NCBI GenBank assembly: GCA_963764165.1
Contig: CAVXRD010000004.1
Location: forward strand, 416,001-480,000
Length of the DNA: 64,000 bases
Reading direction: 5' to 3'
Source: an uncultured Verrucomicrobiae bacterium
GTDB lineage: Bacteria > Verrucomicrobiota > Verrucomicrobiia > Limisphaerales > Palsa-1400
The notes under the pieces were generated by a model, which saw only the letters and a list, made by a program, of their open reading frames with translations, was not told the origin of the DNA and searched no databases. Position 1 is the first letter of the stretch, and each line of letters begins with the position of its first letter. Below are positions 40,058 to 62,621 of this stretch, in pieces. The translations under genes were made by a program, and so were the position numbers.

Positions 40058-40411
40058 TTTCCGCATGAAAATGCCTGTCACCCATAAAACGGCCGGAAAG
40101 TCCGGTTCTCAAACGCCGTCGAAATCAAAGGCGGCCAAGTGCGTCCACCGGACGGGGCTTTGGACGATGGAGGTTTTCATCGGACCGGACGGAAAGCGAA
40201 GGAAGGACCATTCGCTGACTCGACAGGTACCGGCACGATCCGACTCCCGAACTTGTGGAGTCTCTCAAGGGCTGCTCCTCACCCGAGCCGATCCTGATCA
40301 TCACACGGCAGGTTGTGCGGCCTGCCCGCCAAAAGGCCGATTACACACAATTGGCGCTGCCTGGCATTGACCCGGCACAGTCACACACACATAAATAGGC
40401 TCACTCACTTC

Positions 40412-43123: not shown

Positions 43124-43263
43124 GAACGAACCCCCTGGGCCGGGTTTAAGTGTATGGCCTGTTTTTTCCGTGAGACCCCTATTTTTCCGGTTTCGGATTG
43201 CAGAAAATCCACCAATGAAATGCGGGAAAACGCCAAGTGCCGCAATTTGCGCACGAGGGCGGA

Positions 43264-43860
43264 ATGCGCCGCACCAGGAAATCGAAAGAAAAAACGCCGA
43301 GGCCAAAAACTGTCAAACAAACTCCACCGCCGACAGCACCGGCACCGCCCTCTCCCGTCAATATGGAACCAATTATTGACACGATTTCCGCCCTCGAATT
43401 GGAAGAGATCACCGGCTTGACGGACCGTCGGCATCGGCAGATCGCGGACGAAGGGTATTTCCCGAAGCCTGACCTGGGGAAGTACCGGCGCGACGAGACG
43501 CTCCGAGGAATGTTCCGCTACTACCGCGAGCGCAACGACAAAGACACACTCACGGCTGAACGCGTTTTGCTCACCAAGGAAAAGCGGATCGAGCAAGAAA
43601 GCATTAATGCCGAGCGTTCCGGCCAGCTCGAATCGAAGGAAGCGATCGCGAAAAAGATTTTCGCGCTCGGGGAGGAAATAAAGTCGACGCTCAATTTTCA
43701 ATTGACCGACCGCCTGCCGGCATTGAATGCAGGCCTCGACGCGCCGGCACAGCGCATTAACAACCGCGCTGTGTTTCTGGAAATTCTCAAACGCTTTCAG
43801 GAATTCGCCAAACGGTGGATCGCGCCCGATTCACCAGCCGAGAAAAAGGAAACCGCCTAA
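43264..43860 (+). CDS. Terminase small subunit (Nu1-like); start uncertain
   Basis: wHTH ISALELEEITGLTDRRHRQIADEGYFPK plus coiled coil; abuts TerL. Confidence 0.78.
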   Translation: MRRTRKSKEKTPRPKTVKQTPPPTAPAPPSPVNMEPIIDTISALELEEITGLTDRRHRQIADEGYFPKPDLGKYRRDETLRGMFRYYRERNDKDTLTAERVLLTKEKRIEQESINAERSGQLESKEAIAKKIFALGEEIKSTLNFQLTDRLPALNAGLDAPAQRINNRAVFLEILKRFQEFAKRWIAPDSPAEKKETA

Positions 43861-45779: not shown

Positions 45780-45947
45780 ATTGCGTGCCGTAACGAAGCG
45801 CGGGCAGAAATGCACCGGGAAATCGCCGATCACGAGGTAAAATTTCCACCGATGCCCGGTCAGGGTTTGCCTGCCGTAACATCGCGATAGGGAATGTGCG
45901 CAATAAGTTTATCGCCCAATTGCTGTCCTTAGTGCATTCTCTTTAAC

Positions 45948-46208
45948 ATGTCTGGACTCCAAACACGTCAGGTTCTCACGTTTCAAGGATACATCCTATT
46001 CACCGGCGACCGTCAGACGCTTCCCATCACGATAAAAGCCTTTGACATGACGGGAGCGGCCGCAAAGCTCGCGCGCATCGTCAGTGACCAGCCAGGGGAA
46101 GCGATCGGGATCCAATTGCGCCAAGTCAAAGAAACTCTGATCGTGCCGGCCAATGGAGCGAGCATAAACCACTGGGGTCGGCGTCGCGGGCCAAACAGCG
46201 GAAGCTAA
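45948..46208 (+). CDS. Phage hypothetical protein
   Basis: 86-aa ORF. Confidence 0.6.
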   Translation: MSGLQTRQVLTFQGYILFTGDRQTLPITIKAFDMTGAAAKLARIVSDQPGEAIGIQLRQVKETLIVPANGASINHWGRRRGPNSGS

Positions 46209-46212
46209 CCGA

Positions 46213-46758
46213 ATGTCGCACACGGACAAAAGCGCGCGGCAAGTTGTCACCAGTTTTCCCCAGCAGGAAATTGCAGCGCCGGACGCCGACATCGACGAGC
46301 GCAACGGATGGACCGACGAGCCGGATCGCGGTAACCCTCTTTCGCGCTTCGAGGAGAATCCATTTGACCGCAACGAACGAGTTTCGCTTTGCGCGGATGA
46401 ACTCGGGTTGCTCTTTCAGTGGCTGCTGTTCGGCGGATCGACCCGGAACCGCTCGCGCAGCGCGCCGGTCAACCAGCGGTTGAAAGACATCTGCAAGAAA
46501 CGCGAGATGAAGAAAATCTTGCGACGGCCGAGCATTATCGGCCATCGGCTGGTTGCCATGCTTTTGCGGTTGCGGCCCGATCTGCTAGACGGACATAGCG
46601 CGGCCTCCGTTTCGCGAAAGATGCGCATCTCCCCGCGCATGATGGCGCTGCACACAATGTCGTTCGGAGAGAATTTCCCACTGGCGTCAAAAACAATTCG
46701 GCGGACCAGCAAGGTTGTGAAAGAGGAAGTGTTGCGGGCCAGACACCGCGCAACTTGA
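46213..46758 (+). CDS. Phage protein with possible C-terminal HTH (candidate late regulator)
   Basis: LRPDLLDGHSAASVSRKMRISPRMMA resembles an HTH; function inferred. Confidence 0.55.
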   Translation: MSHTDKSARQVVTSFPQQEIAAPDADIDERNGWTDEPDRGNPLSRFEENPFDRNERVSLCADELGLLFQWLLFGGSTRNRSRSAPVNQRLKDICKKREMKKILRRPSIIGHRLVAMLLRLRPDLLDGHSAASVSRKMRISPRMMALHTMSFGENFPLASKTIRRTSKVVKEEVLRARHRAT

Positions 46759-46942
46759 AAAAGTATGACGAGGGCGAATTTAGCCGTCACGGAGAGGACG
46801 GTCGGCGATTGTTTGTCTGACCTTCGCCGGAGTTGTTACCGTGGCGCCGGCCGCGTTTCTCTGACCGGCGATACTGGTTTTTTAACCAGCATCCAATAAT
46901 TCGGACACGCTTTCATTTTGTTGTCCGCATTTCTGCGGGCCA

Positions 46943-46970
46943 GCCGCGCCGAAGCTTTAGCGAAGGCGGG
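46943..46970 (+). repeat. 28-bp REP-like element (also 53350-53377 +, 50556-50583 -)
   Basis: GCCGCGCCGAAGCnnnRGCGAAGGCGGG in three copies. Confidence 0.8.
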
Positions 46971-46996
46971 TGCCGTAAGTACGCCCCTCAGTCGAA
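46971..46996 (+). promoter_or_regulatory. TGCCGTAA-N17-20-ATG late-gene motif (representative copy)
   Basis: Copies at 46971, 49807, 53378, 54564, 56756, 59147, 59539, 61760; also 45786, 45872. Confidence 0.75.
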
Positions 46997-47308
46997 ATGA
47001 CTGACGAGCAGGCGGCCACTTTAGCGGGGCAAATCACCCCAATGACCAATCAATTGATTGGCGAGGATCTTCTGCAGGGCATCGAGATTCCGCAATTGCT
47101 TGAATGGCGCCGGATGGCCTGCGAGGAATTGTTCGAAGGCATCATCCAATCTACCAGCGCCGGCGACACCTCGGCCACCCGCTTCGGAAAAGTCGACCCA
47201 AAAACGCGGATCCGCCTCATCAATAAAACCCTCTGGCTCCGCGATCCTGTCGCCTTCCCAATGAACCAGCCGGTGAAGCGCACGCGGCCGTTTTACACGT
47301 TTGGTTGA
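46997..47308 (+). CDS. Head-completion protein (gpW position)
   Basis: Small ORF immediately before portal; IIQSTSAGDTS. Confidence 0.55.
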   Translation: MTDEQAATLAGQITPMTNQLIGEDLLQGIEIPQLLEWRRMACEELFEGIIQSTSAGDTSATRFGKVDPKTRIRLINKTLWLRDPVAFPMNQPVKRTRPFYTFG

Positions 47309-48981
47309 AATCCGCCATGCGCATCAATGACAGGCGATCTAGTCACGGCGGCGACGCAGCGCCGCCCTACCAGGGGAAATTTCCCGACGGATACACCCAG
47401 CTAAAATCGGGCATTGTCGTGCCGACGGTCGAGGCGGCTCAATACAGCCTCTACAACACGCCGCGCAGCTCCGGGCAGTTGGATCAATATCGCCAGCGCT
47501 GGTTTACGACCGGCGATATTCGCAAGCTGGTCACCGATTACGACCGCTGGGAATTGATGTCCTACTCGCGCCAGTTATTCGCAGGCCTCGGTAACATGCA
47601 CGCGGCGATTCTGCAAAAGGCGCATCGTTCTGTCGGCGAGGAATGGCGGGCGCTTTACGCCGGCACGGAAACCGCCTGGGGAGATGAAGTCGAGGAATGG
47701 TTGGAACATGTTTGGTACCCAAATTGCGACATGCGCGGTCCGCCCTACGATTTCGTGACCGACTTAATTCTTTCGTCGATTGCGTGGGACGTGGACGGCG
47801 ACGACGCAATGATTTTGACCGAGGACCCTTCGACACATTTTCCGAAGGTGCAGTTCATTCCGTCGCACCGGATCAACACGCGCATGGCCCGGGGCAGCGC
47901 CGACCAAAAATCGACCAGCGGTTGGTCCAGCGGCGCCACCGTCAGTCAGGGAATTATTTACGATCGCAACATGGCGGTCATTGGCCTGCGCATTCTGGGC
48001 GACGGCGAAACGCAGGATCGAGATGTTCCTCTGACCAGTTGCCAGCTCATGTACGACCCTGAGTGGCAATCACAGAATCGCGGACTTCCCACGCCTTCGT
48101 GTGAAATCATGGGCGCGCTGGATTACCAGGATTTCGATGTTTTTATCAAACGCGGGGTGAAAAAAGCCACGTCGCTGGCATTGATTCGCACCACCGAATC
48201 CGGTCAGGCCGATACGGGCGATGCCTTTATTGCCGACACGCCGATTCAGGACGCGACACCCGGCATCAAGCGCGAACTCATTCGCGGCGGCGAAGATTAT
48301 TATTTGACAGCCAACAAGGGAGAAAAAATCGAGGGCCTCAAATACGAAATGCCGTCGCAGTCCATCGAAGGTTTCATAAAGCGCCTCGAACATCGAATCA
48401 TTCTCGCCTGCGGCTGGTATGCGGAACTGCTCAACCCCAAGGAAGTCGGCGGGGCCAGTGTGCGGCTGATCCAGGACAACGCGCGGGCGACCGTGCGGCA
48501 CCGCCAAAAATCCATTCGCGCCCGCTCGCTGCGCGCCATCCGTTACGCCGTCGCGAAGGCGATGAAGAACGGCTGGATTTCCCGCAATGACGTGGATTGG
48601 TGGAAATTCGATTTCGAGTATCCCGCCTTATTGACGGTGGACGAGGGTCGTGATTCGCGCAGTGATTTGATGATGCTCTCGCTCGGCACTTTGACCGAGA
48701 CGAAGTACCACGCCAAATACGGCGACAACCAAAAACAGGTTGCCCGCCAAAAAGACCAGGAAGTCTCCAACCGAATCAAGCGGGCCAAATCCATTTCAGA
48801 GGAAACCGGCACGGATTGGGAGTGGGTCTATCAGCAGCTCTGGTCGCCGCGAAGCCCGCCCGCCTTGTCGGCCGAGGGCGATTGGGGACCCAACGGTCCG
48901 CCCAAAGGCGACCAGGTTGCGCCCGGTTCCGGAGGAGGCGGCGAAGAGGAAGGCGGCGGAGGCTCAGAAGGAAACCAATGA
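47305..48981 (+). CDS. Portal protein (lambda-type)
   Basis: 558 aa between TerL and S49; DVDGD, KVQFIPSHRI, QNRGLP, GASVR, TVDEGRD. Confidence 0.82.
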   Translation: MKSAMRINDRRSSHGGDAAPPYQGKFPDGYTQLKSGIVVPTVEAAQYSLYNTPRSSGQLDQYRQRWFTTGDIRKLVTDYDRWELMSYSRQLFAGLGNMHAAILQKAHRSVGEEWRALYAGTETAWGDEVEEWLEHVWYPNCDMRGPPYDFVTDLILSSIAWDVDGDDAMILTEDPSTHFPKVQFIPSHRINTRMARGSADQKSTSGWSSGATVSQGIIYDRNMAVIGLRILGDGETQDRDVPLTSCQLMYDPEWQSQNRGLPTPSCEIMGALDYQDFDVFIKRGVKKATSLALIRTTESGQADTGDAFIADTPIQDATPGIKRELIRGGEDYYLTANKGEKIEGLKYEMPSQSIEGFIKRLEHRIILACGWYAELLNPKEVGGASVRLIQDNARATVRHRQKSIRARSLRAIRYAVAKAMKNGWISRNDVDWWKFDFEYPALLTVDEGRDSRSDLMMLSLGTLTETKYHAKYGDNQKQVARQKDQEVSNRIKRAKSISEETGTDWEWVYQQLWSPRSPPALSAEGDWGPNGPPKGDQVAPGSGGGGEEEGGGGSEGNQ

Positions 48982-49796
48982 AGTTCCAACATATTATTGA
49001 CGCGCTTTACCGGCAGCCGCTCGCCATTACGGAAGCGGGATTCCAAACCATCGATGCGCTGGTGCGCCCGATCATTTTTGAGGGCAAGCGGCCGGAGACG
49101 GATTTGTCCGGCTCGCCGATGCCGCAGATGAAGATTGAAAACGGGATCGCCGTCATTCCGATCATCGGCCCGCTCCTGCAGCACGCCTCGCTTTTATCAA
49201 AACAATGCGGGGCGACCTCGTATGATGACATCCGGGAGGATTTGGAAACGGCCGCGAAGTCACGGGTTGACTCGGTTATTATGAACATCAATTCGCCCGG
49301 CGGCCAGGTGATCGGCTGTCTGGAATGCGCCGAGTTCATCAGGGATTTTCAAGAGGAAACGAAGATCCCCGTCTATGCCTTCACCGACACGCAAATGTGC
49401 AGCGCAGCTTATTTTCTCGCCTCGGCGTGCGACACCATTTTCGCCGCGCGCAGCGCCATGATGGGAAGCATCGGCGTCATCGTCGCCTTCATGGATTCCA
49501 GCAAAGCGATGGATCAAGCCGGATTGAAGCCGATGATTTTCACCAGCGGAAAATACAAGGCCACCGGCTCGCCTGGCGTCGCTTTCACACCGGAGCAAAT
49601 CGAATACCTCGAGTCAATGGTGGCGGATGGCTTCGCGCAATTCGCGGATTTCGTCTCCTCGCAGCGCCCTCAGATCTCCCTCGACAACATGCAGGGCCAA
49701 ATCTTCTGGGGCGAGCAGGCGCTGGCAGCCGGGCTGATCGACGACACTGTCAACTCGATTGATGATCTCGGTGAGATTTTCGGATTTTCAGAGTGA
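48978..49796 (+). CDS. S49 family head maturation protease
   Basis: INSPGG, CSAAYFLAS, GSIGV, SGKYK, A..AGLID. Confidence 0.92.
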   Translation: MKFQHIIDALYRQPLAITEAGFQTIDALVRPIIFEGKRPETDLSGSPMPQMKIENGIAVIPIIGPLLQHASLLSKQCGATSYDDIREDLETAAKSRVDSVIMNINSPGGQVIGCLECAEFIRDFQEETKIPVYAFTDTQMCSAAYFLASACDTIFAARSAMMGSIGVIVAFMDSSKAMDQAGLKPMIFTSGKYKATGSPGVAFTPEQIEYLESMVADGFAQFADFVSSQRPQISLDNMQGQIFWGEQALAAGLIDDTVNSIDDLGEIFGFSE

Positions 49797-49831
49797 AAAT
49801 TTCCTGTGCCGTAACTTCGCATCGGGAGCGA

Positions 49832-50347
49832 ATGAAGTTCTCGGAAATCGTTTCGGCGCTGGCGAGCCTCACGGCAAAAATCACGGGCATTGAAGCCAAG
49901 GTCTCTGACCTCTCGGTTAAGGCCACCAATCCCAAGCCCATCTCCGACGAGGAACGCACCGCGTTCAACGCCGAGATCGCCGGCGTCAAAGCATCCGTCA
50001 CTGAACTTCAAAACGGCCTGGTCGCAGCGACCACGGCCATTACCGAGGCCACCACGGCCAACACAAATTTAACGGCGGAAATCGCTTCGCTCAAAACTCA
50101 GCTCACGGACAAGAAAGCCCTGGCCACGGCCGGAGTCGCTGCCGCGGCTGAATTGGCTGCGAGCCAGACCACGCAAGCGGTTTCGCCCAAGACCGATATC
50201 GACCCCTCCGGGAAAACGCCCGAGCAGCTTCTGCAAGCGCAGATGGCCGCGGCGACCAGCCCGAAGGAGAAAACCACCATCGCCCGCAAGCTGCGGGAAT
50301 TGCGAGGAGTTTCGTTTGCCGGCCAGGAAATCAAAGCAACGGCGTAA
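49832..50347 (+). CDS. Scaffold-like coiled-coil protein
   Basis: Ala-rich coiled coil between protease and capsid; ATG 49832 lies 17 nt after the motif. Confidence 0.65.
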   Translation: MKFSEIVSALASLTAKITGIEAKVSDLSVKATNPKPISDEERTAFNAEIAGVKASVTELQNGLVAATTAITEATTANTNLTAEIASLKTQLTDKKALATAGVAAAAELAASQTTQAVSPKTDIDPSGKTPEQLLQAQMAAATSPKEKTTIARKLRELRGVSFAGQEIKATA

Positions 50348-50611
50348 GGGCAACGACGTCTGGCTCGGATCCCAGCGCGAAAAGGAAATCGGCTGGCTGC
50401 AGGCGCGGATGAAGGAGACGCCCGACGGCAAACAAAAGATGCGCCTGGCGCGGGAAGCGCGGTCGCTCCGGCACGGCACGGACATTTTGCGGGGCGGCCG
50501 CGACTACGACTTTAGCTCGGCGCTGCGCGGAGTGCGGCTGCCGGCGGTTCACTGACCCGCCTTCGCCGAAGCTTCGGCGCGGCGAGCAGTAGAGAAGAAA
50601 ATAGAAATTTT

Positions 50612-51565
50612 ATGGCAACATTAAGCGCAGCGGAAATTCTGGCGGACACACTGGACGCCTTCAAAACGGAAGTGCCGATTCTCTCGGCGGTTTCCACCGA
50701 CCTTTCGAGCGCGCGCGCGGTCAAGGGTTCGCAGATCATCGCGCACATTTCGGTTTTGCCGACCGTGCAGGCGTATGACCCGGTGACAGGTTTCGCCAAC
50801 GGCGCCACGGACGCCAGCAACCTCTTGCAGGACGTGCCGGTGACGATGAACTACTTGCCGCACGTCCCGACCGACGTCACTTACCTGGATACGATCGCGT
50901 CGCAAAAGGATTTGTACAAGGAGGCGATTCGCAATTCCACGTACGTCCTAGGAAAGAACGTCGTCGATACGCTGCTTGGTTTCATCAACGGCCCGGGCGG
51001 AAACAATTTTTCCAACAAGTATCTCGCCTCCCTGGCGAATACCACTTTGGACACCGTCGAAGCCGTGAGGTCGCTCTTGAACACGAACCACGCCGCGACT
51101 GTGGGCCGCTTTGGAATCGTCAGCACCGGGTTTGCCCAGGCGCTGCAGGAAGATCAACGCACAATGAGCGCGCTGTTCTACTCGCAGCTCAACGGCGACA
51201 ACGCGCTGCGCCGCTTTCAGCGCATCGGCGGTTTCAGCAACATTTGGGAATACCCGGATATGCCGAACAACGGCATCAATCTGAGCGGCGCGTTTGCCGA
51301 TCGCCGGGCCTTCACCGTGGCCACCCGCATTCCGACGCTGGGCGCTTTCGCCGGCAATCCGCTCAACGCGCCGATGACGGCCGCGTTCGAAGTCGTCGAG
51401 GATCCCGACAGCGGCCTGTCGCTCCTGGGCATCGTGTGGATTACCAACGGCACGTTCAACATGAACATGACGCGCACGTTCCTGTTCGGCATAAGCGCTG
51501 GCAATCAGGGCACTGGCAACGGCCAGAAGACGGACAACGCTTTGGTCTACACGACCACGGCCTAA
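50612..51565 (+). CDS. Major capsid protein
   Basis: 317 aa after scaffold; STDLS...KG..I, RFGIVS, DPDSGLSL; position-based plus HK97-fold-like pattern. Confidence 0.78.
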   Translation: MATLSAAEILADTLDAFKTEVPILSAVSTDLSSARAVKGSQIIAHISVLPTVQAYDPVTGFANGATDASNLLQDVPVTMNYLPHVPTDVTYLDTIASQKDLYKEAIRNSTYVLGKNVVDTLLGFINGPGGNNFSNKYLASLANTTLDTVEAVRSLLNTNHAATVGRFGIVSTGFAQALQEDQRTMSALFYSQLNGDNALRRFQRIGGFSNIWEYPDMPNNGINLSGAFADRRAFTVATRIPTLGAFAGNPLNAPMTAAFEVVEDPDSGLSLLGIVWITNGTFNMNMTRTFLFGISAGNQGTGNGQKTDNALVYTTTA

Positions 51566-51600
51566 CGCGCAGACGGCGCAACGCATCTCGGAAAGCAAAT

Positions 51601-52251
51601 ATGTATATCGCAGTTGGATTTCCAAGCAGCGCCCGTGAAGACGGGGCTGAGGTGCTGTACGCCGGACAAGACAAAGGCGCGATGCTCAAGGCGATTGATG
51701 CCGCGATCGCCTCCAAGAAATTTCAACTGATCGGGAAGCTGCTCAGGCCGCTGTTTCAGAAACACACCATGACGCCCGGCGTGCATGTGATTGTCGATTG
51801 CAGCCCGGCCCACAACGCAGGTTTGAAAGCGCAAAGCGCGGCCCTCGCCTCCGGTGCGACTGCTGAGGAAGCGGCGTCCAAAGGCGCGAGCGTCAAGCTC
51901 GATGCCGCCAAAGCCAACGCCCTCTCGCTTGCCAAGCTCGCGGAGGACGAGCGCGGAAAATTTGCAAATTTGCAACGGGAGTGGCAACGCCAGATCGCGG
52001 CCGCCCCGGGTGACAACCGGCTCAAGGTGCACATCGGCCATTTGGAAACGCGGGCAAAAAATGTCGTGGACTCCGCGATAACGCTGGCGACGGAAGCAGC
52101 CGAACGCGCGACCGCCGCCGAGAAAGATTTAGCAGTCAAACAGAAAGCCGCCGAAGACGCGAAAGCCGCTGCCGAGAAAGCCGCGGCGGAAAAGGCGGAC
52201 GCAGAAAAAGCCCAAGCCGAGGTTGAATCCAAAGGCAAAAAGAAAAAGTAA
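51601..52251 (+). CDS. Phage protein with Ala/Lys-rich coiled coil
   Basis: MYIAVGFP..; AAEKAAAEKA tail. Confidence 0.7.
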   Translation: MYIAVGFPSSAREDGAEVLYAGQDKGAMLKAIDAAIASKKFQLIGKLLRPLFQKHTMTPGVHVIVDCSPAHNAGLKAQSAALASGATAEEAASKGASVKLDAAKANALSLAKLAEDERGKFANLQREWQRQIAAAPGDNRLKVHIGHLETRAKNVVDSAITLATEAAERATAAEKDLAVKQKAAEDAKAAAEKAAAEKADAEKAQAEVESKGKKKK

Positions 52252-52252
52252 T

Positions 52253-52879
52253 ATGAAGTCCATTAAAAATTTTGCAGTGATGATCGTGGTGTTGATCGCC
52301 ATGCTGTTTGCCTCATTGCGCGCGCGCGCGCAAGGCGGCGGCAGCGCCCCGCAGAACCTGGGACCGCAGGGCGCCACGACCGTTGTGCTGGCGACCAATT
52401 ATCCTTTCGCCTCGCTGCCAGCCAGTTCCACCAACACGTTTCCGCAGACTTATACGGTCACGAATATTTATTCGAACGTGTTCTCGATTCCGGTCACCTA
52501 CGTGACAAACATCACCACTAACACGGTGACAGGTTATATTGACCTCACCGGCCAGCTCGATCTGGCGATCCAGACTGGTTTTTCATGCACGAACCCCACC
52601 GACGTTTCGAACGTGGTTTGGAAGCTGATGCCGTCCCTCGACGGGGTCAATGCCGATACGACGAACGCCGCCTGGTGGGTCACAAACACCAGCCCGGGCA
52701 GCAATGGGCTTGTGCAGACGACTGTTTTTTCCAGCGCCCAAAAATCAGGCATTGCCGGATTCTTTGTGGGAGAGGTCATCAACCTGAATACGAACCCAAT
52801 TTTCCCGTTCTTGACCAACGCGACCGGCAGCAATTACCAGTTCATGCAGGTACGCGGAACGAAGCCTGTCCGTTATTGA
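52253..52879 (+). CDS. Thr/Asn-rich beta protein with Sec-type signal peptide
   Basis: MKSIKNFAVMIVVLIAMLFASLRARA-QGG. Confidence 0.75.
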   Translation: MKSIKNFAVMIVVLIAMLFASLRARAQGGGSAPQNLGPQGATTVVLATNYPFASLPASSTNTFPQTYTVTNIYSNVFSIPVTYVTNITTNTVTGYIDLTGQLDLAIQTGFSCTNPTDVSNVVWKLMPSLDGVNADTTNAAWWVTNTSPGSNGLVQTTVFSSAQKSGIAGFFVGEVINLNTNPIFPFLTNATGSNYQFMQVRGTKPVRY

Positions 52880-52880
52880 T

Positions 52881-53276
52881 ATGACGAAAGTAGCCCTTTT
52901 GCAATTGGCCCAGGCGACCGCCGCAACGGTGGTCACCGGGAGCGCGTCCGCCCTGGCGGCGGATCAGGCGATGGTGAATGCCTTCGTCGGCACCGGCAAT
53001 CCGGCGACGGATTATCCCGGGTTCAAGCAGAGTTTCGGCCGCGAGCTGCAAAGCTACCGCCAAGCTGCACAAGCCGACGCAGCGCCCGCGACCGCACCCG
53101 GCGCAGGCCCGAGGACGCAGGCGATCTCGGCTGAAGTCTTCGCCAAATTGCCGCCTGACATGCAGGCTCGATTGGTGGCGGCCAACCCGGCTCTTGCCAA
53201 TGTGGTTGCGGCTGCGCCCGCGCCTGTATCCGCAACGGCTGCGGCTCCAGTTGCATCAGCGCCACCGGCAGCGTAA
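52881..53276 (+). CDS. Ala/Pro-rich phage protein
   Basis: 131-aa ORF before terminator. Confidence 0.65.
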   Translation: MTKVALLQLAQATAATVVTGSASALAADQAMVNAFVGTGNPATDYPGFKQSFGRELQSYRQAAQADAAPATAPGAGPRTQAISAEVFAKLPPDMQARLVAANPALANVVAAAPAPVSATAAAPVASAPPAA

Positions 53277-53301
53277 GATCATTTTTTGTGTGGGGGGAAT
53301 C

Positions 53302-53340
53302 GCGGGCGGCTTCTGTCGGGAGGCCGCCCGCATTTTTTTT
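53302..53340 (+). terminator. Intrinsic terminator after head genes
   Basis: GCGGGCGGCTTC-loop-GAGGCCGCCCGC followed by T8. Confidence 0.85.
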
Positions 53341-53403
53341 CCAACCCTTGCCGCGCCGAAGCGCCAGCGAAGGCGGGTGCCGCAATTCCGCTGCTAGCTC
53401 AGA

Positions 53404-53727
53404 ATGAGCCCACTCGGCAGCATGCACAATCAGGCGCTTCGCGACTTGGAACGTCTCCTTAAAAATCCACAGTTGAAGTGGCTTGGCTTCCCTTATGTTT
53501 GCGCGCCCTCCACGCTCGAGCGCGGGCAGACCATCGGTTTCGGGGGCCGATTGTATGACGTCAAATTGACACTCACCGTGCGGACGGAAGTTATTAAAGG
53601 CGCGGCCAAACCGTTGGAGTCAGGAAAAGTCATCGAGTATGACGATGAACAATACCGCATCGCCGTCGCCAAGACCGCCTCCACCGGCGATCACATTCGC
53701 TTGACACTCATTGATCCCAACCGATGA
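53404..53727 (+). CDS. Head-tail joining protein (gpFII-like)
   Basis: 107-aa beta-rich, G..I.YD...YRI; position. Confidence 0.6.
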   Translation: MSPLGSMHNQALRDLERLLKNPQLKWLGFPYVCAPSTLERGQTIGFGGRLYDVKLTLTVRTEVIKGAAKPLESGKVIEYDDEQYRIAVAKTASTGDHIRLTLIDPNR

Positions 53728-53728
53728 C

Positions 53729-54556
53729 ATGGCCAGCGATATCCAATTCTCGGTCGACATGCAGTCGTTTGGCTCGCAGCTCGCGCGCCTGGCGATGGCA
53801 TCGAGGAGGACGAACAAAGAGGTCCTGATTCAACAGTGCCGGATCATGGCGGTGGATTTAATCAGATCCACCCCGCCGACCGGCAACCGGCCTTTGACCG
53901 AATCTTTTGCCGCCCAAAAGAAAAAAGGCGAAATGTCGGTCGACCGCGATATCACCAGGCTTTTTCAGCCCCTGACGACCATTCGCGCCGTGCTCGATCC
54001 CATGCCGCGGCGCGGCCACTACAAACCGAGCAGGCTCGACTATTTGAAGCATCTCGCGGAACGCGGCCAGTTTCAGGAACTGAGCGAAGCGATGTTTGAT
54101 ATGCAGATTACGGACGAGCGCGTCCCGATCGTCGCCGCCATCACCACGGAAGAGTACCGCGCGGAGTGGATGCTCTTCGCCACGCGCGGGACCGTCAGCG
54201 CAAAGCGGGCCCGCCGCACGCTCGTGTGGGACAGCAGCGCCCTGGCGGTCGTGCGCGAAGAGGTGAAGAAACGCGTCGGCTGGGCCAAAGCCGGCTGGAT
54301 GCCCGCCGCGCGCCACTTGCAGGCGAAACGGCTGCCGGCGTGGATCACCGACAAGAACGCCCCTGGCGGCTTCATTGACGACACCAACGATGCCGACGAG
54401 CCGGCATTCACTTTCATTAACAACGTCAAGTATATTGCATATTTGAACAATGGAAACCGGCTGTTGCTCCGGGTTATTCGCGAACGGCAGCGGGCCATGG
54501 AAATTTCCATTGAGCACGCGCTGGAGCATTACATCGAGGAGTTTAACGCGGCCTGA
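53729..54556 (+). CDS. Neck/tail-completion protein
   Basis: DLIRSTPP..RVGWAKAGW..P.WI..N.V.Y; position. Confidence 0.6.
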   Translation: MASDIQFSVDMQSFGSQLARLAMASRRTNKEVLIQQCRIMAVDLIRSTPPTGNRPLTESFAAQKKKGEMSVDRDITRLFQPLTTIRAVLDPMPRRGHYKPSRLDYLKHLAERGQFQELSEAMFDMQITDERVPIVAAITTEEYRAEWMLFATRGTVSAKRARRTLVWDSSALAVVREEVKKRVGWAKAGWMPAARHLQAKRLPAWITDKNAPGGFIDDTNDADEPAFTFINNVKYIAYLNNGNRLLLRVIRERQRAMEISIEHALEHYIEEFNAA

Positions 54557-54589
54557 CCGCCTCTACCGTAACTCCGGGCCTCGGGCACG

Positions 54590-55627
54590 ATGGCAAAGGC
54601 CCCTTACAGTCCCGAACTGGATACGCTGGAGTTCCGCATCGAGGCGGCGCTGAAAACCTATTTGCTCTCGGTCGGCATCACCGGCAATCCGAACATTTAC
54701 ACCGGTGAAGAGACTGAGGACCGCGAGCTGCCCGCCATCGTTTGTGAATGCCACGGCGGCCCAGAGAATCCTCCCGGAACGAATAATTTTCTTGAGGACG
54801 CCACTGTTTGCATTGTCTCGAATGTTGACGAAACGGAGTCCGACGCGGATCCATTCCCGCCAGCCAGGCGGCTCGTTGAGCAAGTCAAGTATTGGTTGTG
54901 GGATGCTCTTCTCGACAGCAACGCGAATGAGCACTTGCACGAGATATTGACCGCTCAGGTGCCAAACCTTCAGGTGCAAAACCAAATTCAATTTCACGGC
55001 CCGGTCATCGCGATCCACGATCGCAAGATGATCACGGAATTGAAATTCACGATGCAGGCGTATCAGGGCTTCAACGGCGTGGCTGGTCCGGCGCCGGGAT
55101 TTTCGCTCCACACGCTTCTGCCCGTTGCCTGTGGCGTGGCGCAAGGAAGCACGGAATGCCACTGCCCGGCCGGGTCGACGACGATCGGCATTCTGCCAGG
55201 GATCGCCGGGAAAACGTATCAATACACTTTCCTGGTCAGCGGCCTGGTCGAGCTCAAGAGTTACACTGGCGGAACGCAGAGCGGCTTTTTTTACACGGGC
55301 GGTTCCAACGCCAACGATGGCAACGCCAATTCGTACGGACTCGTCGTCACCACGCCCGCTAATGCGCCCAACGTCACCGCCAGCCAAGGCCAGTTTTTCC
55401 TGAACGCGTCCACTGGCGGGGCTGGGAGGTACCAAAACAACGTCGTTCAATACAAAGTGACACTGACAGCTCAGGCGGGACAGGCGATGGTGCTGACCAC
55501 CAATTCATTCGACGGCTTCCAAGCCAGCAACCCCAACGCTCTGACCGTTCCCGGAATCACGTCCCCTGCGCAGCCGTTCAACGGGCAATTTATACGGCTC
55601 GATCTGGTCAACGCGGTGCAGGTGTAG
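54590..55627 (+). CDS. Tail terminator-like protein with extra C-terminal beta domain
   Basis: IYTGE..ELPAIVC N-terminal domain; Gly/Thr/Asn-rich extension. Confidence 0.55.
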   Translation: MAKAPYSPELDTLEFRIEAALKTYLLSVGITGNPNIYTGEETEDRELPAIVCECHGGPENPPGTNNFLEDATVCIVSNVDETESDADPFPPARRLVEQVKYWLWDALLDSNANEHLHEILTAQVPNLQVQNQIQFHGPVIAIHDRKMITELKFTMQAYQGFNGVAGPAPGFSLHTLLPVACGVAQGSTECHCPAGSTTIGILPGIAGKTYQYTFLVSGLVELKSYTGGTQSGFFYTGGSNANDGNANSYGLVVTTPANAPNVTASQGQFFLNASTGGAGRYQNNVVQYKVTLTAQAGQAMVLTTNSFDGFQASNPNALTVPGITSPAQPFNGQFIRLDLVNAVQV

Positions 55628-56501
55628 CCGTTGCGTAACTGAGATCGACGAATTCGAGGTCGGGGTTAAACCACAGCACCGCCTCGCCCACCGTCGACGT
55701 GCATTTCAAAAAGAACTGACAACGGGAAAGTAGGTGCGCCTCAATTAGAACATCCTTGCCGAGGCGGTAGCCATTCAGCGAACGCTTTTGGAACACGTTC
55801 TTGTCCGTCCTGGATCGCACGGAGTTGTAACAAACAATTCGCCCTTCGTAGCGGTGCTTGAACATCTCCAGGTACTGCGCCTGGTCCGTGGCAACGAAAA
55901 TTCTTGCATCTGGATGCGCGGACAGCATCGGATCAATCCGGTCGAAATAATCCTGAGGCTCGATAATCCTCATGGCCCGCGGATTGGCCACGTTGGTGGC
56001 CTTGTCGGTCCCCCGCACATGAACTCCAATCACAAAACGCCCACTCATGTGGCGACCGTGGAACTTGTCAATTTCCTCGCGAATGTGGCTTTTGATTTTG
56101 ACATACTTTTTAATCAGAGCCGCGCCCTTGCTCCTCTGGAGCCGGTACCAGTCTGGATCGTAATCGGCTTTCGCAAAATAAACCCCGTAGGGATAAGGAA
56201 ACACGCTCTCGGGATCTTGGAAGTGGAGATGGTGCAGTTCATCCGCAGTCAGCTCGAACAATTTCCCAGGGACAGCGGCCCGCACATCCTCGTAAGTCAA
56301 CCCGGCCACCGGCTCAAAGTAATAATTCCACATGTTGGAGCCGAAGCGTAAATCATAAAAATCATTGCGACCGCTGCCGGCCCGCTTCCCAAAATAAACC
56401 ACCGGGAAATAGCCGTTTCGCTCGCAAAGAGACAGTTGGTTCAACGCGAAAAGGAGATATCCGAAAAACCCGACATTGTGGCTCTTAAGGGTGATGACCA
56501 T
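55608..56501 (-). CDS. NodZ-like / O-fucosyltransferase family glycosyltransferase (moron)
   Basis: GFFG, NMWNYYFEP, IGVHVRGTDK, IFVATD, LLSRC..STV; start could be upstream (to 56708). Confidence 0.8.
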   Translation of the reverse strand: MVITLKSHNVGFFGYLLFALNQLSLCERNGYFPVVYFGKRAGSGRNDFYDLRFGSNMWNYYFEPVAGLTYEDVRAAVPGKLFELTADELHHLHFQDPESVFPYPYGVYFAKADYDPDWYRLQRSKGAALIKKYVKIKSHIREEIDKFHGRHMSGRFVIGVHVRGTDKATNVANPRAMRIIEPQDYFDRIDPMLSAHPDARIFVATDQAQYLEMFKHRYEGRIVCYNSVRSRTDKNVFQKRSLNGYRLGKDVLIEAHLLSRCQFFLKCTSTVGEAVLWFNPDLEFVDLSYATATPAPR

Positions 56502-56781
56502 GATCGCGTTGAATTCGGCGCAAGCAGCGATGGAAACGGTCCGCAAACTCTCTTCTTTCCGGAAACGCGAGATAGAGCGAACGGTCGAGGGTTTGAGAGA
56601 GTCGATGGCAAAAGACCCCAGGGCAATGCAGTCGGCGACGAAATACCTCCGCATCCAGCCCGCCGCGATGACAACGGCCGGAAGACGATTTTTAAGAAAT
56701 GTCTTCAACGGGTACCAATGATAGCGATCCCTGGCGGCCCTGTCAGGCTTTAATGTGCCGTAACTTCAACCGTAGGGCGAT

Positions 56782-57195
56782 ATGTCGCTCAACGTTTTTG
56801 GCCAGGCAATCGTCCGCGACGCCGCGACGAACATCGATTTTCTTTCCTCGGGGGCGTATTCGTGCGACGACTCGGATTACTCCCAGGACTTCGGCCGCGA
56901 TGATGTCGAAGGAACATCCGGCGCGCTGGCGTCCGTGCTGGTCAAGCGCCTGATCGAGAAACTCACCATCACGGTGACTCCCATGGGCGCCACCTTCGAG
57001 AACGCGCAGTCCCAGGCTGTTCTTCCTACACCTATGCAGGTCGTGACGCTGTCCGAATCGACCATCGCCAATTATAACGGCACCTGGAATTTCATCTCCG
57101 GTGGCAAGATCAAAAGCAAAAAGGCCGGCGTGACAGTCATGACTTACATGCTGGAGCGTTACGATGGCGCGGCCCTGACGCAAGTCACCACCTAA
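56782..57195 (+). CDS. Tail tube protein (putative)
   Basis: 137-aa beta-rich ORF before chaperone and tape measure. Confidence 0.55.
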   Translation: MSLNVFGQAIVRDAATNIDFLSSGAYSCDDSDYSQDFGRDDVEGTSGALASVLVKRLIEKLTITVTPMGATFENAQSQAVLPTPMQVVTLSESTIANYNGTWNFISGGKIKSKKAGVTVMTYMLERYDGAALTQVTT

Positions 57196-57207
57196 GCGCG
57201 GCGGTCC

Positions 57208-57822
57208 ATGAGCCCGCCCGAATATCTCTCCGCTTGCATCCCCGAGCCATTCACGGTCCTGGGAATGAAACTGCGTCCGCTCAGCATCGGCCATATTCTT
57301 TTGATGCAGTGGCAGGGGCTTTCCTACGTCAGCGAGAGGCCCGAGCCGCCAACGATGGACGACTTAATTTCGGGATGCCTGATTTGCTCGATGGGATTCC
57401 GGGAATACAAGGAGTTTTTGGAGCGCCAGGATTTGCGCGAAGAGCTGACCCGGCTTGGGCGCGTCTTTAGCTTTGACGAACTTCCGGAAAAATACGCGCT
57501 GTTTCGGGCCTACCTAGACCAAGGAACCGAATCGCCCGAGGTGGAAATACCCGACAGCATTGCCAGCGGGGTTCTCCTCGGCACGCCCTGGCTGCAGAGC
57601 CTCCGCATCTGCCTGATGAGCAAACTGCACGTCAGCAACGAGGAAACATTTGATTATCCATACCGGATGGCGCTCTGGGATTGCTTCTCGGTCCGTGAAT
57701 CCGAAGGCCGCCTTGTCATCAACACTGGCCAAATGGACACGGCGGCTATGCAGGAAAAAATTGAGGTAATGCAGGCGCTCAATCTGGCGTTTCTGGAACG
57801 GCTGGGAGGAATTCCAAAGTAA
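57208..57822 (+). CDS. Tail assembly chaperone (putative)
   Basis: VLGMKLRPLSIGH..; directly before tape measure. Confidence 0.55.
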   Translation: MSPPEYLSACIPEPFTVLGMKLRPLSIGHILLMQWQGLSYVSERPEPPTMDDLISGCLICSMGFREYKEFLERQDLREELTRLGRVFSFDELPEKYALFRAYLDQGTESPEVEIPDSIASGVLLGTPWLQSLRICLMSKLHVSNEETFDYPYRMALWDCFSVRESEGRLVINTGQMDTAAMQEKIEVMQALNLAFLERLGGIPK

Positions 57823-59154
57823 ATGGGCCTTCACGTCAAAACATCCGTCGACGGCCACGGCTTCGCCGCCGGCCTGAAAAAGATGGAGGAGGACGCCGAG
57901 CATTTCGGCAAAAACCTCTCAGAGAAAATCTCCGGGCATTTCGGAGAAGCAGTCATGGGGGTTATCCCCGGTCTGACTAGCTCCATTGCAGGCGTTTTTG
58001 CGGCGGAAAAAATCAAGGAATCGCTCAAGGAATTTGGCGAGCAGGCCGAACGCATTGAATTTGGCTCCATCCGTCTCAACGTCGATCCAGAAACATTTCA
58101 GCGGCTCGACCGGGTGATGAAAGTCACCGGCGAGACCGCCGAGACGGCCGCGACTGCCTTCGACAAACTGGCTGTGTCCGCCACGAAAATCGAGGACGGC
58201 CGCGACAAGACAGGAGAGCTGCGCCAGGCCTTCGCGGAGCTGGGTGTCACCACGGATGAGCTGGCGAGCAAGGATTACCGCAAAATATTTTTCCAGATCG
58301 CCGAAGGCTTGAAGGATATCGAGCCGAGCAAAGAGCAGATCGCTGCGCTGCGCGAGGTCTTCGGCAAGCAGGGCGATAATTTGCTGCCCGCGTTCAAGCT
58401 TGGTTTTGACAGCGACTACGCCACGGCCGGCGTCCTGGATGAGAAGGAATTGCAGGGCATCAAGGCGGTGAATGATGAATGGCGCAAACAGGGTGCAACC
58501 ACGGCTGGAATGTGGAACACCACGAAACGGGCCGCGCTTGAGGCTGCGTCCGGCCTCGCCCTCATGATCAACCCATTTAGATGGGCACAGAATTTGGGCA
58601 CGCCTGATGAGGACGGATACCACCAAAAATTCATGGCCGAGGAAGCCAAACGCCTCGCCGAGATCACCGCCGAGAAGCGGAAGCAGGCGGCCGCGCAGGA
58701 AGCGCTGCATGAGGCGAATAGGAAATCGGACGAAGCGGATCGCAAGAAAGCCGCCACGATCGACAAGGAGACGGAAGCGCTAAAGGAGCGCAACCGGATC
58801 GCCGCCATGACGCCTGAGGAAAAGCGGCTTTATTTGCTCGATCAAATCCGGCAGATGCAGGGCGAACTGGATTACGGCGCCGGAAACAGCCGGGCGGATG
58901 ACGCGACGTTGCGCAAAAAAATTGCCGAAGCGCAGCATGAAATTTCGCAGCTCGACAAGGTTAAGCCGAAGGCCGTCCACGAACATCTTTCTCATCTAGG
59001 CAACCAGGCCATCGGCGGAATCATGATGGGACACGACCGGCTAAACGAGATGGCCGCGCATACGCGCCGGTCGGCGGAACACCTCGCGAGCATCGACAAG
59101 AAAATGGCCGCGCGGCAGCCGTCCGGCCGCACGCAGCATCACGACCTGCCGTAA
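57823..59154 (+). CDS. Tape measure protein (short, 443 aa)
   Basis: Helical; VDGHGFAAGL, AFAELGV, EVFGKQGDNLLP. Confidence 0.78.
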   Translation: MGLHVKTSVDGHGFAAGLKKMEEDAEHFGKNLSEKISGHFGEAVMGVIPGLTSSIAGVFAAEKIKESLKEFGEQAERIEFGSIRLNVDPETFQRLDRVMKVTGETAETAATAFDKLAVSATKIEDGRDKTGELRQAFAELGVTTDELASKDYRKIFFQIAEGLKDIEPSKEQIAALREVFGKQGDNLLPAFKLGFDSDYATAGVLDEKELQGIKAVNDEWRKQGATTAGMWNTTKRAALEAASGLALMINPFRWAQNLGTPDEDGYHQKFMAEEAKRLAEITAEKRKQAAAQEALHEANRKSDEADRKKAATIDKETEALKERNRIAAMTPEEKRLYLLDQIRQMQGELDYGAGNSRADDATLRKKIAEAQHEISQLDKVKPKAVHEHLSHLGNQAIGGIMMGHDRLNEMAAHTRRSAEHLASIDKKMAARQPSGRTQHHDLP

Positions 59155-59171
59155 TACCGCAGTCATGGTGT

Positions 59172-59546
59172 ATGAATATAACACCTGAACGGATTGCGGA
59201 CGCGATCGCTCGCGGCCTCTGCGCAAGATGTTTGCGCCGCAAACATCGTCCCGGCATGCGAACGTGCAGCTATTGCGGCCATCTGGACGCGGCACACAAA
59301 AAAAGCCACGTCGAGAGACTGAAAAAGAAAGGCGGCTGTTTCCGCTGCGCACGGCCCGCGCTGCCTGGGCGTAAACGTTGCGAGCCATGCACCATATTTC
59401 ACAATGCCTATTGCGTCGCGAAGAGAAAATCATGGAAGGCGGCTGGGCTTTGCACGGGCTGCGGAAAGGGCACGCCTGCCGAGGGCAAGACCAGATGCCA
59501 GCGGTGCATAGACTGCGGCGCGCGCCGCAAGCGGTCGATGCCGTAA
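59172..59546 (+). CDS. Basic CxxC-repeat Zn-finger protein
   Basis: Six CxxC units in three repeats. Confidence 0.7.
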   Translation: MNITPERIADAIARGLCARCLRRKHRPGMRTCSYCGHLDAAHKKSHVERLKKKGGCFRCARPALPGRKRCEPCTIFHNAYCVAKRKSWKAAGLCTGCGKGTPAEGKTRCQRCIDCGARRKRSMP

Positions 59547-59564
59547 GTACGCCCCAGAGTCACA

Positions 59565-60338
59565 ATGGCAGCACAAAGCGAATGGGGCCAGGCCGGCCCA
59601 ATTGAAACGTACGCGGACAGCTCCTACGATCCCATGTCAGGCTGGGAGCAGGAGCAACGCTGGACCGGCTTCCCGGCCGACATCGTCGCCCTCGGCAATT
59701 CATTCATCGCCGCCGGATGGAAAGCCCGCGTCGAAACGACGAACAGCCAATGGAGCCGCCTCATTGTCTCCATCCCCAACAACGGAACCGACGATTACAT
59801 TGATCGGTGGGAATTCAGCATTGGCTTCAAGCAGCAGGATTTGTTTCTCAATATTGGCGTTAACGCCTACCTGCAAAACGCCGGGCTTACCGATGCGCAA
59901 ATCATTGACCTGCGCACCGTGCTCAAACCCTATCTTGATGCGAACACTGGCAACGCAGCCGTGACGGTCGCGCAAGGCGCGGCGTCCGGCGCAATTTACC
60001 AGATGCTGCAGATGGGCCAGGAATTCGTCGAAGTCGCGCAGCCGACGATTTCGCGCAAGCGAACGTACGGATACAACTTCGCTGGCACCATCATGGCGAC
60101 GCGGGTGACGCAGGATGTTTGGAGCACGTCCGCTCTGATCGCCGCCTTCGGAATTCCCTCACAGGTCTCCGCGCAAATTTCGCCCGATCCCAGCGCGCCG
60201 CCGGTCACAAATTTCGCGTTCGGATGGAAGATGCGCAAAAACAATTTGGTGATCATTCCAGCCAAAAACAAAATCGAGGAGCAGCTCGAATGGGAATGGG
60301 ACCAGTGGTCGACCATCGCTTACAATTATATTTCCTGA
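59565..60338 (+). CDS. Tail tip/baseplate protein (putative)
   Basis: Follows tape measure; Trp-rich C-terminus. Confidence 0.55.
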   Translation: MAAQSEWGQAGPIETYADSSYDPMSGWEQEQRWTGFPADIVALGNSFIAAGWKARVETTNSQWSRLIVSIPNNGTDDYIDRWEFSIGFKQQDLFLNIGVNAYLQNAGLTDAQIIDLRTVLKPYLDANTGNAAVTVAQGAASGAIYQMLQMGQEFVEVAQPTISRKRTYGYNFAGTIMATRVTQDVWSTSALIAAFGIPSQVSAQISPDPSAPPVTNFAFGWKMRKNNLVIIPAKNKIEEQLEWEWDQWSTIAYNYIS

Positions 60339-61405
60339 TGAACCTCCCTGAGCCACTTCCAGAGACAGACGATTTCCGCCTCAAAGGTCTTTTCAGTTGG
60401 TGCAACCGCCTTCGCGATTACGCGCAGTCAATAACCCTGATGCGCAGCGCCGACTCCAGGCTTGAGCGCACGCCTGCCGGCACGCTGCTTCGACCGGCGC
60501 GGGATTCAACGCCGCGCGATCTCGGCATTCGCAGCGTCACGAATTGGTATCTGCCTCCGATCACTATCACCGAGACGGATCGCGACGGCTTTTCCAATCC
60601 GCGCCAATTCACCTGGAATGGTTTGATCGCGTTTGGCCCCTGGGTCGGCGGCGCGGCCGCCAACGAAGAAAACATTTACGGAACCGGCGGATACGGCAGC
60701 GACACTTTGTTTGCATTCGATTACGGAGTATCGGGTTTCGTTGACGGAGAAAACACCAGCCCGCCAAGCAATTTTGTGTGGGACATCGATCCAGTTGTCT
60801 GGCCGGGCTTCGCCGATTTCCAGGACGCGGCCGACAACGCGGCCTTCTACCTCGTCGACTTGCCGCCGACCCTTCGCAATCAAATCGTGGGCGGCACATT
60901 CACTCAGCAGGATCAGCGCGAAACAGGACTCACCGAATGGCTGTTTGACTACGCTTACGCTAACGGACAGCCCACCTTGCCCCAGATTTACGACCGCTAC
61001 CCTTTTGATTCTACCAATGGCACATATTACGGCGACGGCGTCGGAAACGGCACCGGCAGCGGAGCGGCTACAGATGATTACACGGCTTATATCGAGCCGA
61101 GCTATTTCCCCGGCTCAACGCTCTACATTGCGAACCCCAACAGACTGCGCACCAGTCGCCGTTACTTTTACCAGGATGCCTATTTCGGGGCGACGATTGA
61201 GCTGAACATGGGATGGGTTGACTTGAACGTGGACGCCCGCCGCTGGATGGCCGCCGGTTTGGTGGAAAACCACATGAGAGTGCAGATCGCTACGAACGGG
61301 TCGGGAGTAATGATCCCACCGCCAAACGCCTCAGTCGGCCTGGACGGCAACCTTTACGTCCCCGTCAACCAGGACTCAAATTACTATCCCGCCAACACGA
61401 TTTAG
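60338..61405 (+). CDS. Tail protein (putative)
   Basis: TGATG coupling; RLERTPAGT..R N-terminus. Confidence 0.6.
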   Translation: MNLPEPLPETDDFRLKGLFSWCNRLRDYAQSITLMRSADSRLERTPAGTLLRPARDSTPRDLGIRSVTNWYLPPITITETDRDGFSNPRQFTWNGLIAFGPWVGGAAANEENIYGTGGYGSDTLFAFDYGVSGFVDGENTSPPSNFVWDIDPVVWPGFADFQDAADNAAFYLVDLPPTLRNQIVGGTFTQQDQRETGLTEWLFDYAYANGQPTLPQIYDRYPFDSTNGTYYGDGVGNGTGSGAATDDYTAYIEPSYFPGSTLYIANPNRLRTSRRYFYQDAYFGATIELNMGWVDLNVDARRWMAAGLVENHMRVQIATNGSGVMIPPPNASVGLDGNLYVPVNQDSNYYPANTI

Positions 61406-61599
61406 CCATAGCCATGCTTCGCCGCCTCGGCGTCCGCGACGCTGGCGAGCCATCCGCTCAGATTGGATTTGCTCTTCTGCGCGGCCTTGACCCAAGCCGA
61501 TTTTTGCCGGGGGCGGACACGCAGCTTCACGATAGCGGTGGATGAATCCTGGCGGTGATTTCCCGGCCAATCGGCTTTTGGGTTGTTAGAATCGTTCAT
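61402..61599 (-). CDS. Ribbon-helix-helix-like small protein
   Basis: IVKLRVRPRQKSAWVKAAQKSKSNLSGWL. Confidence 0.6.
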   Translation of the reverse strand: MNDSNNPKADWPGNHRQDSSTAIVKLRVRPRQKSAWVKAAQKSKSNLSGWLASVADAEAAKHGYG

Positions 61600-61787
61600 T
61601 GCATCTCGCTCATTAACGGAAGTTTCCTGTCAAGAATCTGAATCGCATAGTCCAGCGGGGCAACCCCTTTGAGCTTTGCCGCGCGCCGCAGCCTGGCGGA
61701 AAGGGTTTCCGGAAGTCGCGCCAGGCTAATCTGGCGGGGCTTCGGATCGCATGCATACGTGCCGTAAGTACGCCCCTCAGTCGAACG

Positions 61788-62621
61788 ATGGCGATGCTCA
61801 ATGGAATCATTCTCCGAAGTGACGGGACCGCGCCCAATCCGTGCCAGCGATGGCCGGAAGGCTGCCCCATGCCCGGACCCATCCCGACCTCGCGCGCGGG
61901 CGATCTCAATAACAGCGTGGCGCACAGCCACATTTACTTTCGGCCCATTCAAACTCCGTTCGTCGATATCGGCCAAAACAACGCCATCATCATCGGCGGT
62001 GTCCGCCGCGCGCGCATCGATGCGGAGACGGGGGCTTTCACGATTCAACTTCTCCAGGGGAATTATTCTGTCGCGGTGGGCGCCGAAGTTTTCGAAATCA
62101 ACATCCCGTCCGACGCCGGCACGTTTGAGCTTTCGGCGTGCATCGTCACCGCTATGAATTTCCAACCGCCGGCGTCCAATACTTACCAGGGCAACTTCCC
62201 GTCCACCGCGGATGATTTTGTCCTGCCCGCCAACGCGGTGAATAACCCCGGCGCGCCGGTCGCCACTGGCTGGACGCAAATTGTCCAAGGCCCCGGCAAA
62301 TTCCAAATCGAAGCCAGCGTGATGGTTTACGCGACCAGCCGCGACGGCAACCAGCAGGACAACGAGACGTATACCGCGTATTTGTGGGACTCGACCGACG
62401 CCGTCATTGTCGGCCAAACCGTAACCGTCGACAACATATTCACCGGCACGCAGGGGCAGATCGTTTTGCGCGGCACGGTGAACATCGTGGGAGCAACGCA
62501 AATCCTCCTGGAAGTCTACGCCGCCGGCAACCCCAACACAGCCGACCAAAGCGCCGCCCCGAATTCCGTGGGAACAATCCTCATGGATCAATCCTCAATT
62601 TCCATCACGCGACTGAATTAA
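61788..62621 (+). CDS. Tail fibre-associated protein
   Basis: IYFRP..TP..GAFTIQLLQGNYSV resembles prophage tail fibre N-terminal domain. Confidence 0.6.
   Translation: MAMLNGIILRSDGTAPNPCQRWPEGCPMPGPIPTSRAGDLNNSVAHSHIYFRPIQTPFVDIGQNNAIIIGGVRRARIDAETGAFTIQLLQGNYSVAVGAEVFEINIPSDAGTFELSACIVTAMNFQPPASNTYQGNFPSTADDFVLPANAVNNPGAPVATGWTQIVQGPGKFQIEASVMVYATSRDGNQQDNETYTAYLWDSTDAVIVGQTVTVDNIFTGTQGQIVLRGTVNIVGATQILLEVYAAGNPNTADQSAAPNSVGTILMDQSSISITRLN

Follow-up and report, generated by a model that had tools for sequence, protein, structure and literature searches.

Late-gene control has been worked out in few phages, and in none of Verrucomicrobia in the literature searched. The case described here is a short box, TRCCGYAA-N-T, that stands before the late genes of a lambda-like prophage in an uncultured Verrucomicrobiae bacterium. 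The prophage lies mostly inside the window, meaning the whole stretch of 64,000 nucleotides that was analysed (GenBank assembly GCA_963764165.1, contig CAVXRD010000004.1, positions 416,001 to 480,000, forward strand), and extends about 5.5 kb beyond its end. By analogy, the box seems to work most like the late system of phage P1 with its activator Lpa, and next most like that of Thermus phage Lalka27a.

The late promoters of P1 retain a sigma70 -10 element. Lpa, a small phage activator, binds a conserved box, a 9-bp inverted repeat centred at -22, at about 11 late promoters; host SspA is used, and no antiterminator is described as needed (PMC3152322, PMC10695390). The prophage resembles P1 in its distributed late boxes, centred here 22-23 nucleotides (nt) before the ATG, a distance counted from the ATG and not from mapped starts, and in the box core TRC-N-GYA, which is a short inverted repeat. 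Unlike in P1, no TANNNT follows the box.

The gp55 protein of T4 is a sigma factor that reads the -10 element. Many T4 late promoters are defined by one 8-bp motif, and specificity is phage-encoded, via gp55 (PMC3152322). The candidate reader of the box in the prophage, a protein called P0001, differs from gp55 in having one helix-turn-helix (HTH) domain and no sign of sigma region 2. The temperate phage Lalka27a has 16 putative late promoters with mostly leaderless transcripts, for which a phage factor and no antitermination is proposed (bioRxiv 10.64898/2026.04.20.719267). What is conserved there is a -10 of TANNNT type (TAGGGT), 6 nt ahead of the start; the box here lies 17-20 nt upstream and TANNNT is absent. 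RinA and ArpU are small phage activators that are encoded next to terS and resemble sigma region 4 to a limited extent (PMC3152322); RinA is described as acting on one promoter before terS. The start-associated sequences (SAS) of Cluster K mycobacteriophages are oriented short repeats at a fixed distance before the ATG (PMC3203893). They are described as lying 3-7 bp from the start of non-structural genes with AGGAG inside, whereas the box lies 17-20 nt away and has no AGGAG. The box was rejected as an SAS on both distance and Shine-Dalgarno (SD) core.

No published description of this late-gene box was found in the literature searched. An earlier note on the window had contrasted its gene-by-gene control with a single late operon; distributed control is supported, but given P1 and Lalka27a it is not new in kind. 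What is new is the switched box sequence and the named candidate reader; the absent -10 adds to its interest.

A box before ten late genes

The box is a conserved, real late-gene element. It is likely to have a promoter role, and the reading adopted here, with slightly better than even confidence, is that it gives a compact phage late promoter its specificity and is read by P0001. With its variants it reads TRCCGYAA-N-T and lies 17-20 nt upstream of the ATG at 10 late genes of a 26.3-kb late region that reaches past the window end. In the features below, the gap is the distance in nt from box to ATG, and lengths of proteins are in amino acids (aa).

43238..43245, + strand: box variant TGCCGCAA at gap 18 from ATG 43264, which is in frame with the small-terminase gene terS (start 43363 possible)
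45786..45793, + strand: box after the large-terminase gene terL, with no gene at 17-20 nt and a 26-aa open reading frame (ORF) at gap 16
45872..45879, + strand: second box after terL, with ATG 45948 lying 68 nt further
45948..46208, + strand: 86-aa gene P0002, conserved in the relatives L009 and L008
46213..46758, + strand: P0001, 181 aa, candidate reader and activator, all-helical with a predicted HTH at 130-154
46971..46978, + strand: box, gap 18, before a 103-aa gene ahead of the portal gene (gpW-like position)
49807..49814, + strand: box, gap 17, before a 171-aa gene between protease and capsid (scaffold position)
53302..53341, + strand: intrinsic-terminator-like hairpin, 13 pairs and a T-run, 37 nt before the box at 53378
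53378..53385, + strand: box variant TGCCGCAA, gap 18, before the 107-aa gene 53404
54564..54571, + strand: box variant TACCGTAA, gap 18, before gene 54590
56756..56763, + strand: box, gap 18, before the 137-aa gene 56782 (tail-tube position, judged from gene order)
59147..59154, + strand: box, gap 17, before the Cys-rich 124-aa gene 59172; the TAA of the box is the tape-measure stop
59539..59546, + strand: box, gap 18, before gene 59565; the TAA of the box is the stop of gene 59172
61760..61767, + strand: box, gap 20, before gene 61788, sharing 27 bp with the 46971 copy
C4:483707, past the window, + strand: box, gap 17, before a 77-aa gene

All ten box coordinates and gaps given in the earlier note agreed with a recount in the window, and the 27-bp identity it reported between 46970-46996 and 61759-61785 is exact. 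Two late genes are added to its eight (those behind 43238 and C4:483707), and the consensus is longer than first described, since 21 of 23 close-group sites have T at position 10. The second element that had been called weak is weak indeed, with G at positions 20-21 in 61-65% of the 23 sites.

The exact 8-mer TGCCGTAA occurs 8 times in the window, always on the + strand, where 100 shuffles give 1.23 +/- 1.04 and never reach 8. In the late region it is found 9 times on + and 0 times on -; at the genome-wide rate, with 281 copies over 7 Mb, 0.53 would be expected. If one mismatch is allowed, the count is no more than chance would give (50 vs 42.9), so variants were accepted solely by position and orthology. 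The genome-wide scan that had been suggested thus gave late-region enrichment together with no positional bias of the 8-mer before host start codons (0-3 per position, among 5292 de-duplicated long ORFs). The earlier note had not noticed the motif before host or early genes; the early region has one TRCCGYAA per strand, the forward one belonging to the 43238 side of the boundary or being a chance match.

Close relatives carry the box at orthologous genes while its flanks differ. The IMG/VR contig L002/L009, whose portal is 79% identical, has TGCCGTAA at the same genes with gaps of 17-18, and L060, L062, L063 and L007/L008 agree, with degenerate forms in L007/L008. Across the close group, TRCNGYAA lies at gap 15-20 in 23 of 77 de-duplicated gene calls, and TTGAC at 13-22 in 1. 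The place that corresponds to the 45786 box likewise holds two copies after terL in L002/L009, with one inverted copy between; at L002 590-647 a box and an inverted copy point towards each other across 38 nt. In the prophage, the 45786 box would drive the 45948/46213 gene pair. The box also serves as a practical aid for calling start codons in these phages.

Switched boxes and the candidate reader

More distant relatives (89 loci fetched through portal alignment, duplicates included) were scanned de novo for k-mers, and GTTGAC was found in place of the box. Of 816 gene calls there, 73 have TTGAC at gap 14-17; 3 more have it at gap 18 and 0 at gaps 12-13, and TRCNGYAA is absent at gaps 13-20. 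In a motif-blind listing of the gene preceding the portal, 23 of 43 loci show TTGAC 14-18 nt upstream. Elsewhere the same place is occupied by ACCTGGACA, CTGACGTT or TGTGTCACT. G482 has ACCTGGACA four times, at gap 14 after TGGAC; G661 has (C/G)TGACGTT three times; G372 has ATTGTGTCACT twice; G037:C84 has CCACCATGGACGC three times plus one on another contig; and L051 has GGCTGACAA at variable distance. The window's box is thus one allele of a family-wide element, which the earlier note missed. Taken by itself, GTTGAC might pass for a host -35 in the wrong place, but with several unlike boxes at one place, a single fixed host reader (rRNA or sigma70 region 4) hardly fits all. As a natural experiment, the switched box points to a reader encoded by the phage, with a testable candidate.

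Two side observations concern these loci. The late regions of G533 and G590 show AACGTTCC/TAACGTC before late genes at variable distance, possibly a further box. L016, L017, L056, L066 and L072 have an inverted TTGAC a few bases 5' of the box before the gpW-like gene; it faces a divergent reader gene in 4 of the 5, at an inconsistent distance to the start.

P0001, whose gene sits behind two box copies, is moderately likely to be the reader, judging by gene position and covariation. Its predicted structure is one helical bundle with a low-confidence N-terminus and with H130-136/H141-154 at high predicted local distance difference test (pLDDT) values, and the model points to an HTH DNA-binding protein whose binding to the box is a prediction. 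Sixty proteins of the prophage region were compared with Pfam and PHROGs. P0001 itself matched neither, while HTH_10 matches 6 of 27 family members and MarR_2 matches one (E 1.9e-6). A tblastn search with P0001 and one distant member found no match in 50,697 GenBank phage records, and no RinA/ArpU profile matched the family alignment A3. Structural matches to sigma factors span region 4 only, and family members can be as short as 122-140 aa; given these short members, the one HTH domain and no trace of region 2, P0001 was rejected as a complete phage sigma factor.

The family is unnamed and occurs beside packaging genes of these phages, with homologues after terL or before terS, GTTGAC phages included. 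Of 401 genomes from the phylum, 21 have a match; among 401 from the host's order, 50 do. At positions 142-143, in the predicted recognition helix, 21 of 22 distant A3 members share one residue pair, in clades 10-24% identical to P0001. All 5 members of the window's group carry another pair, and G372 and G661 have other residues alongside their other boxes. This suggests that the predicted recognition helix changes with box type, imperfectly. Among family forms, two paralogues stand side by side in L021, L023 and L066, and an additional N-terminal HTH is seen in L021, L023, L069 and L054.

Under the reading adopted here, P0001 would bind the box and direct host RNA polymerase, and transcription would begin at the ATG or a few bases upstream. 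The two boxes ahead of its own gene would yield positive feedback, and a weak run of A/T followed by GG, 9-13 nt behind the box, may serve host sigma as a crippled -10/discriminator. If activation does proceed without a -10, transcription would be initiated in an unusual way, and the system would supply very short orthogonal promoters. It is possible, if doubtful, that this is a new promoter class, in which a single-domain HTH protein alone sets the start at the ATG with no -10 consensus, and box and recognition helix have been re-tuned together repeatedly (GTTGAC, TGCCGTAA, ACCTGGACA, CTGACGTT, TGTGTCACT). The 5-10 bp box would then lie one helical turn downstream of the normal -35 place, and such phages would hold natural orthogonal activator-promoter pairs of <30 bp.

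Several observations weigh against P0001 as the reader of a family-wide late box. In the motif-blind listing, 20 of the 43 loci lack TTGAC at 14-18 nt; five of these listings picked another ATG, and several AT-rich loci show an ordinary -10. G590 and G533 have family members near lambda-type head genes and no known box at fixed distance. The covariation of helix and box is imperfect, with few events behind it: the window's group, one clade set off by a long branch, counts as one event, G213 and G306 combine GTTGAC boxes with different 142-143 residues, G482 has the common pair but a changed box, and the G037 homologue is on another contig than its boxes. The P0001 family is not confined to the late packaging module: in regions of +/-20 kb fetched around its members, a portal gene was found in 3 of 15 and 5 of 22, and any packaging gene in 9 of 22. 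L008 lacks TRCNGYAA copies upstream of its reader gene, and also a terminator-like hairpin at the site orthologous to 53302..53341. Lastly, the P0001 gene is itself within the late region, a difficulty for its first expression.

The imperfect covariation, and the family members without head genes nearby, also fit a late promoter element read by some other factor, a phage protein or a host alternative sigma, with P0001 as a bystander diverging along with its clade. The host has 63 region-4 matches, and most relatives were viewed over about +/-10-20 kb. We take TGCCGTAA to resemble sigma28 and extracytoplasmic function (ECF) -10 elements. Another reader nevertheless seems unlikely: none of the 60 prophage proteins matched a sigma or RNA polymerase family in Pfam or PHROGs, neither box is used positionally by host genes, and five boxes would need five host factors.

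Promoter geometry and signals for translation

De-duplicated host genes have a TANNNT peak at gap 6 from the ATG, with 130 against about 40, and a TTGAC peak at gap 30-34 (27, 25, 24, 19 and 15 vs about 7); the host thus uses ordinary leaderless sigma70 promoters. Host TTGAC at gap 14-17 is at background level, with no excess. The phage box is 13-14 bp too near the ATG and so is not the -35 of sigma70 geometry. TANNNT was absent 4-9 nt before the ATG at all 90 TTGAC sites and all 23 TRCNGYAA sites, and a promoter scan of the late region gave 7 hits vs 6.8, chance level. The earlier view that no standard sigma70 -35/-10 promoter is present was borne out at both positions. A sigma70 housekeeping promoter was rejected as an identity for the box, its -10 and -35 both failing. 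Behind TTGAC there is a second signal at 9-13 nt (A, A/T, T, G, G), weak at 44-56% each at best, and GG is found at the matching place behind TRCNGYAA.

One host repeat carries the hexamer of the distant phages: an element repeated 27 times in the host genome (for example C1, - strand, near 261516 on that strand) has GTTGAC 17 nt before its long ORF, a spacing shared with the phage boxes, and is probably an insertion-sequence end.

The hairpin at 53302..53341 is the strongest terminator-like one in the late region, and L009 has an orthologous hairpin ahead of its box. Re-initiation behind it requires a promoter, unless transcription is antiterminated. With the box at 10 late genes, one copy past this terminator and no sigma70 geometry, the proposal of gene-by-gene control stands.

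Box copies with no start codon at 17-20 nt are found at 45786, 45872, L002 590 and 703 and two G037 sites (ATG 57 nt off, or none within 70 nt), which favours an element at the DNA level. The choice that had been left between a promoter and a translational element thus tips to the promoter. The spacing window is four bases wide and sharp-edged, like the latitude of host leaderless start sites, and this suggests starts at or just before the ATG; on that spacing it is plausible that the late mRNAs are leaderless or nearly so. A phage-specific late promoter remains the best reading of the box. We infer that the box acts as a DNA site, that P0001 binds it, that the effect is activation and not repression, and that the mRNAs have little or no leader.

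The tight spacing to the ATG is also what would be expected of a start-associated, mRNA-level translation element in polycistronic late transcripts, for which the mycobacteriophage SAS are a precedent (PMC3203893). SD motifs are few (SD 4-mers at 6 of 23 TRCNGYAA sites and 7 of 90 TTGAC sites). Such an element is improbable, however, in view of the copies with no start at the fixed distance, the variable distance in L051 and the copy behind a terminator. A distance of 17-20 nt also exceeds the SD range, the box has no anti-SD complement, and it varies among phages while the anti-SD tail is canonical.

Alternatively, the boxes could be repressor or roadblock sites, stoperator-like, that silence late genes with P0001 as the repressor. 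The copies are intergenic and all in the same orientation, P0001 is a helix-turn-helix protein, and two boxes before its own gene fit negative autoregulation equally. This is decidedly improbable: no sigma70 promoter lies beneath the boxes (TANNNT 0/113; promoter scan at chance), a separate CI-like repressor is encoded at 35686-36123, and a roadblock has no need of a fixed distance to the ATG.

That the copies are functionless relics of a small mobile repeat or a local duplication is very improbable and largely refuted by conservation: two copies have 27 bp in common, a third shares 14 bp and a REP-like hairpin abuts two, but relatives retain just the 8-10 bp core at orthologous genes with diverged flanks, and the REP-like element, with 12 genome-wide matches, is not beside most copies.

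Setting of the prophage

Among prophage relatives that have a named host, most are in Verrucomicrobia assemblies (4 of 6). The main genes around the boxes are as follows.

33048-34637: integrase
35686-36123: CI-like repressor
40313-41161: replication initiator
43860..45779, + strand: terminase large subunit terL (gpA type)
47317..48981, + strand: lambda-type portal
48978..49796, + strand: S49 head maturation protease
50612..51565, + strand: major head protein, without its own box
57823..59154, + strand: tape measure protein

The REP-like hairpin has three prophage copies (46947, 50563-50579 and 53354), of which two abut boxes and one precedes the capsid gene. The gene at 59172-59546, an insertion behind the tape-measure gene that has a box of its own, encodes a 124-aa Cys/Arg-rich protein with repeated CxxC units; it has no match in L008 or L009 and none in Pfam or PHROG. 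Inserted on the - strand at 55608-56708, opposite to the late genes, is a NodZ/FUT8-like fucosyltransferase gene, not present at the counterpart place in L002. From 62626 on (L001 626-5695) a 1689-aa Thr/Asn/Ala-rich repetitive protein without a family match is encoded, probably a tail fibre.

At 36197-36235, before the rightward early gene in the cro position, a -35-like hexamer is followed by 17 bp, a -10-like hexamer, 7 nt and the ATG at 36233. This layout is that of a textbook leaderless sigma70 promoter, unlike the late boxes.

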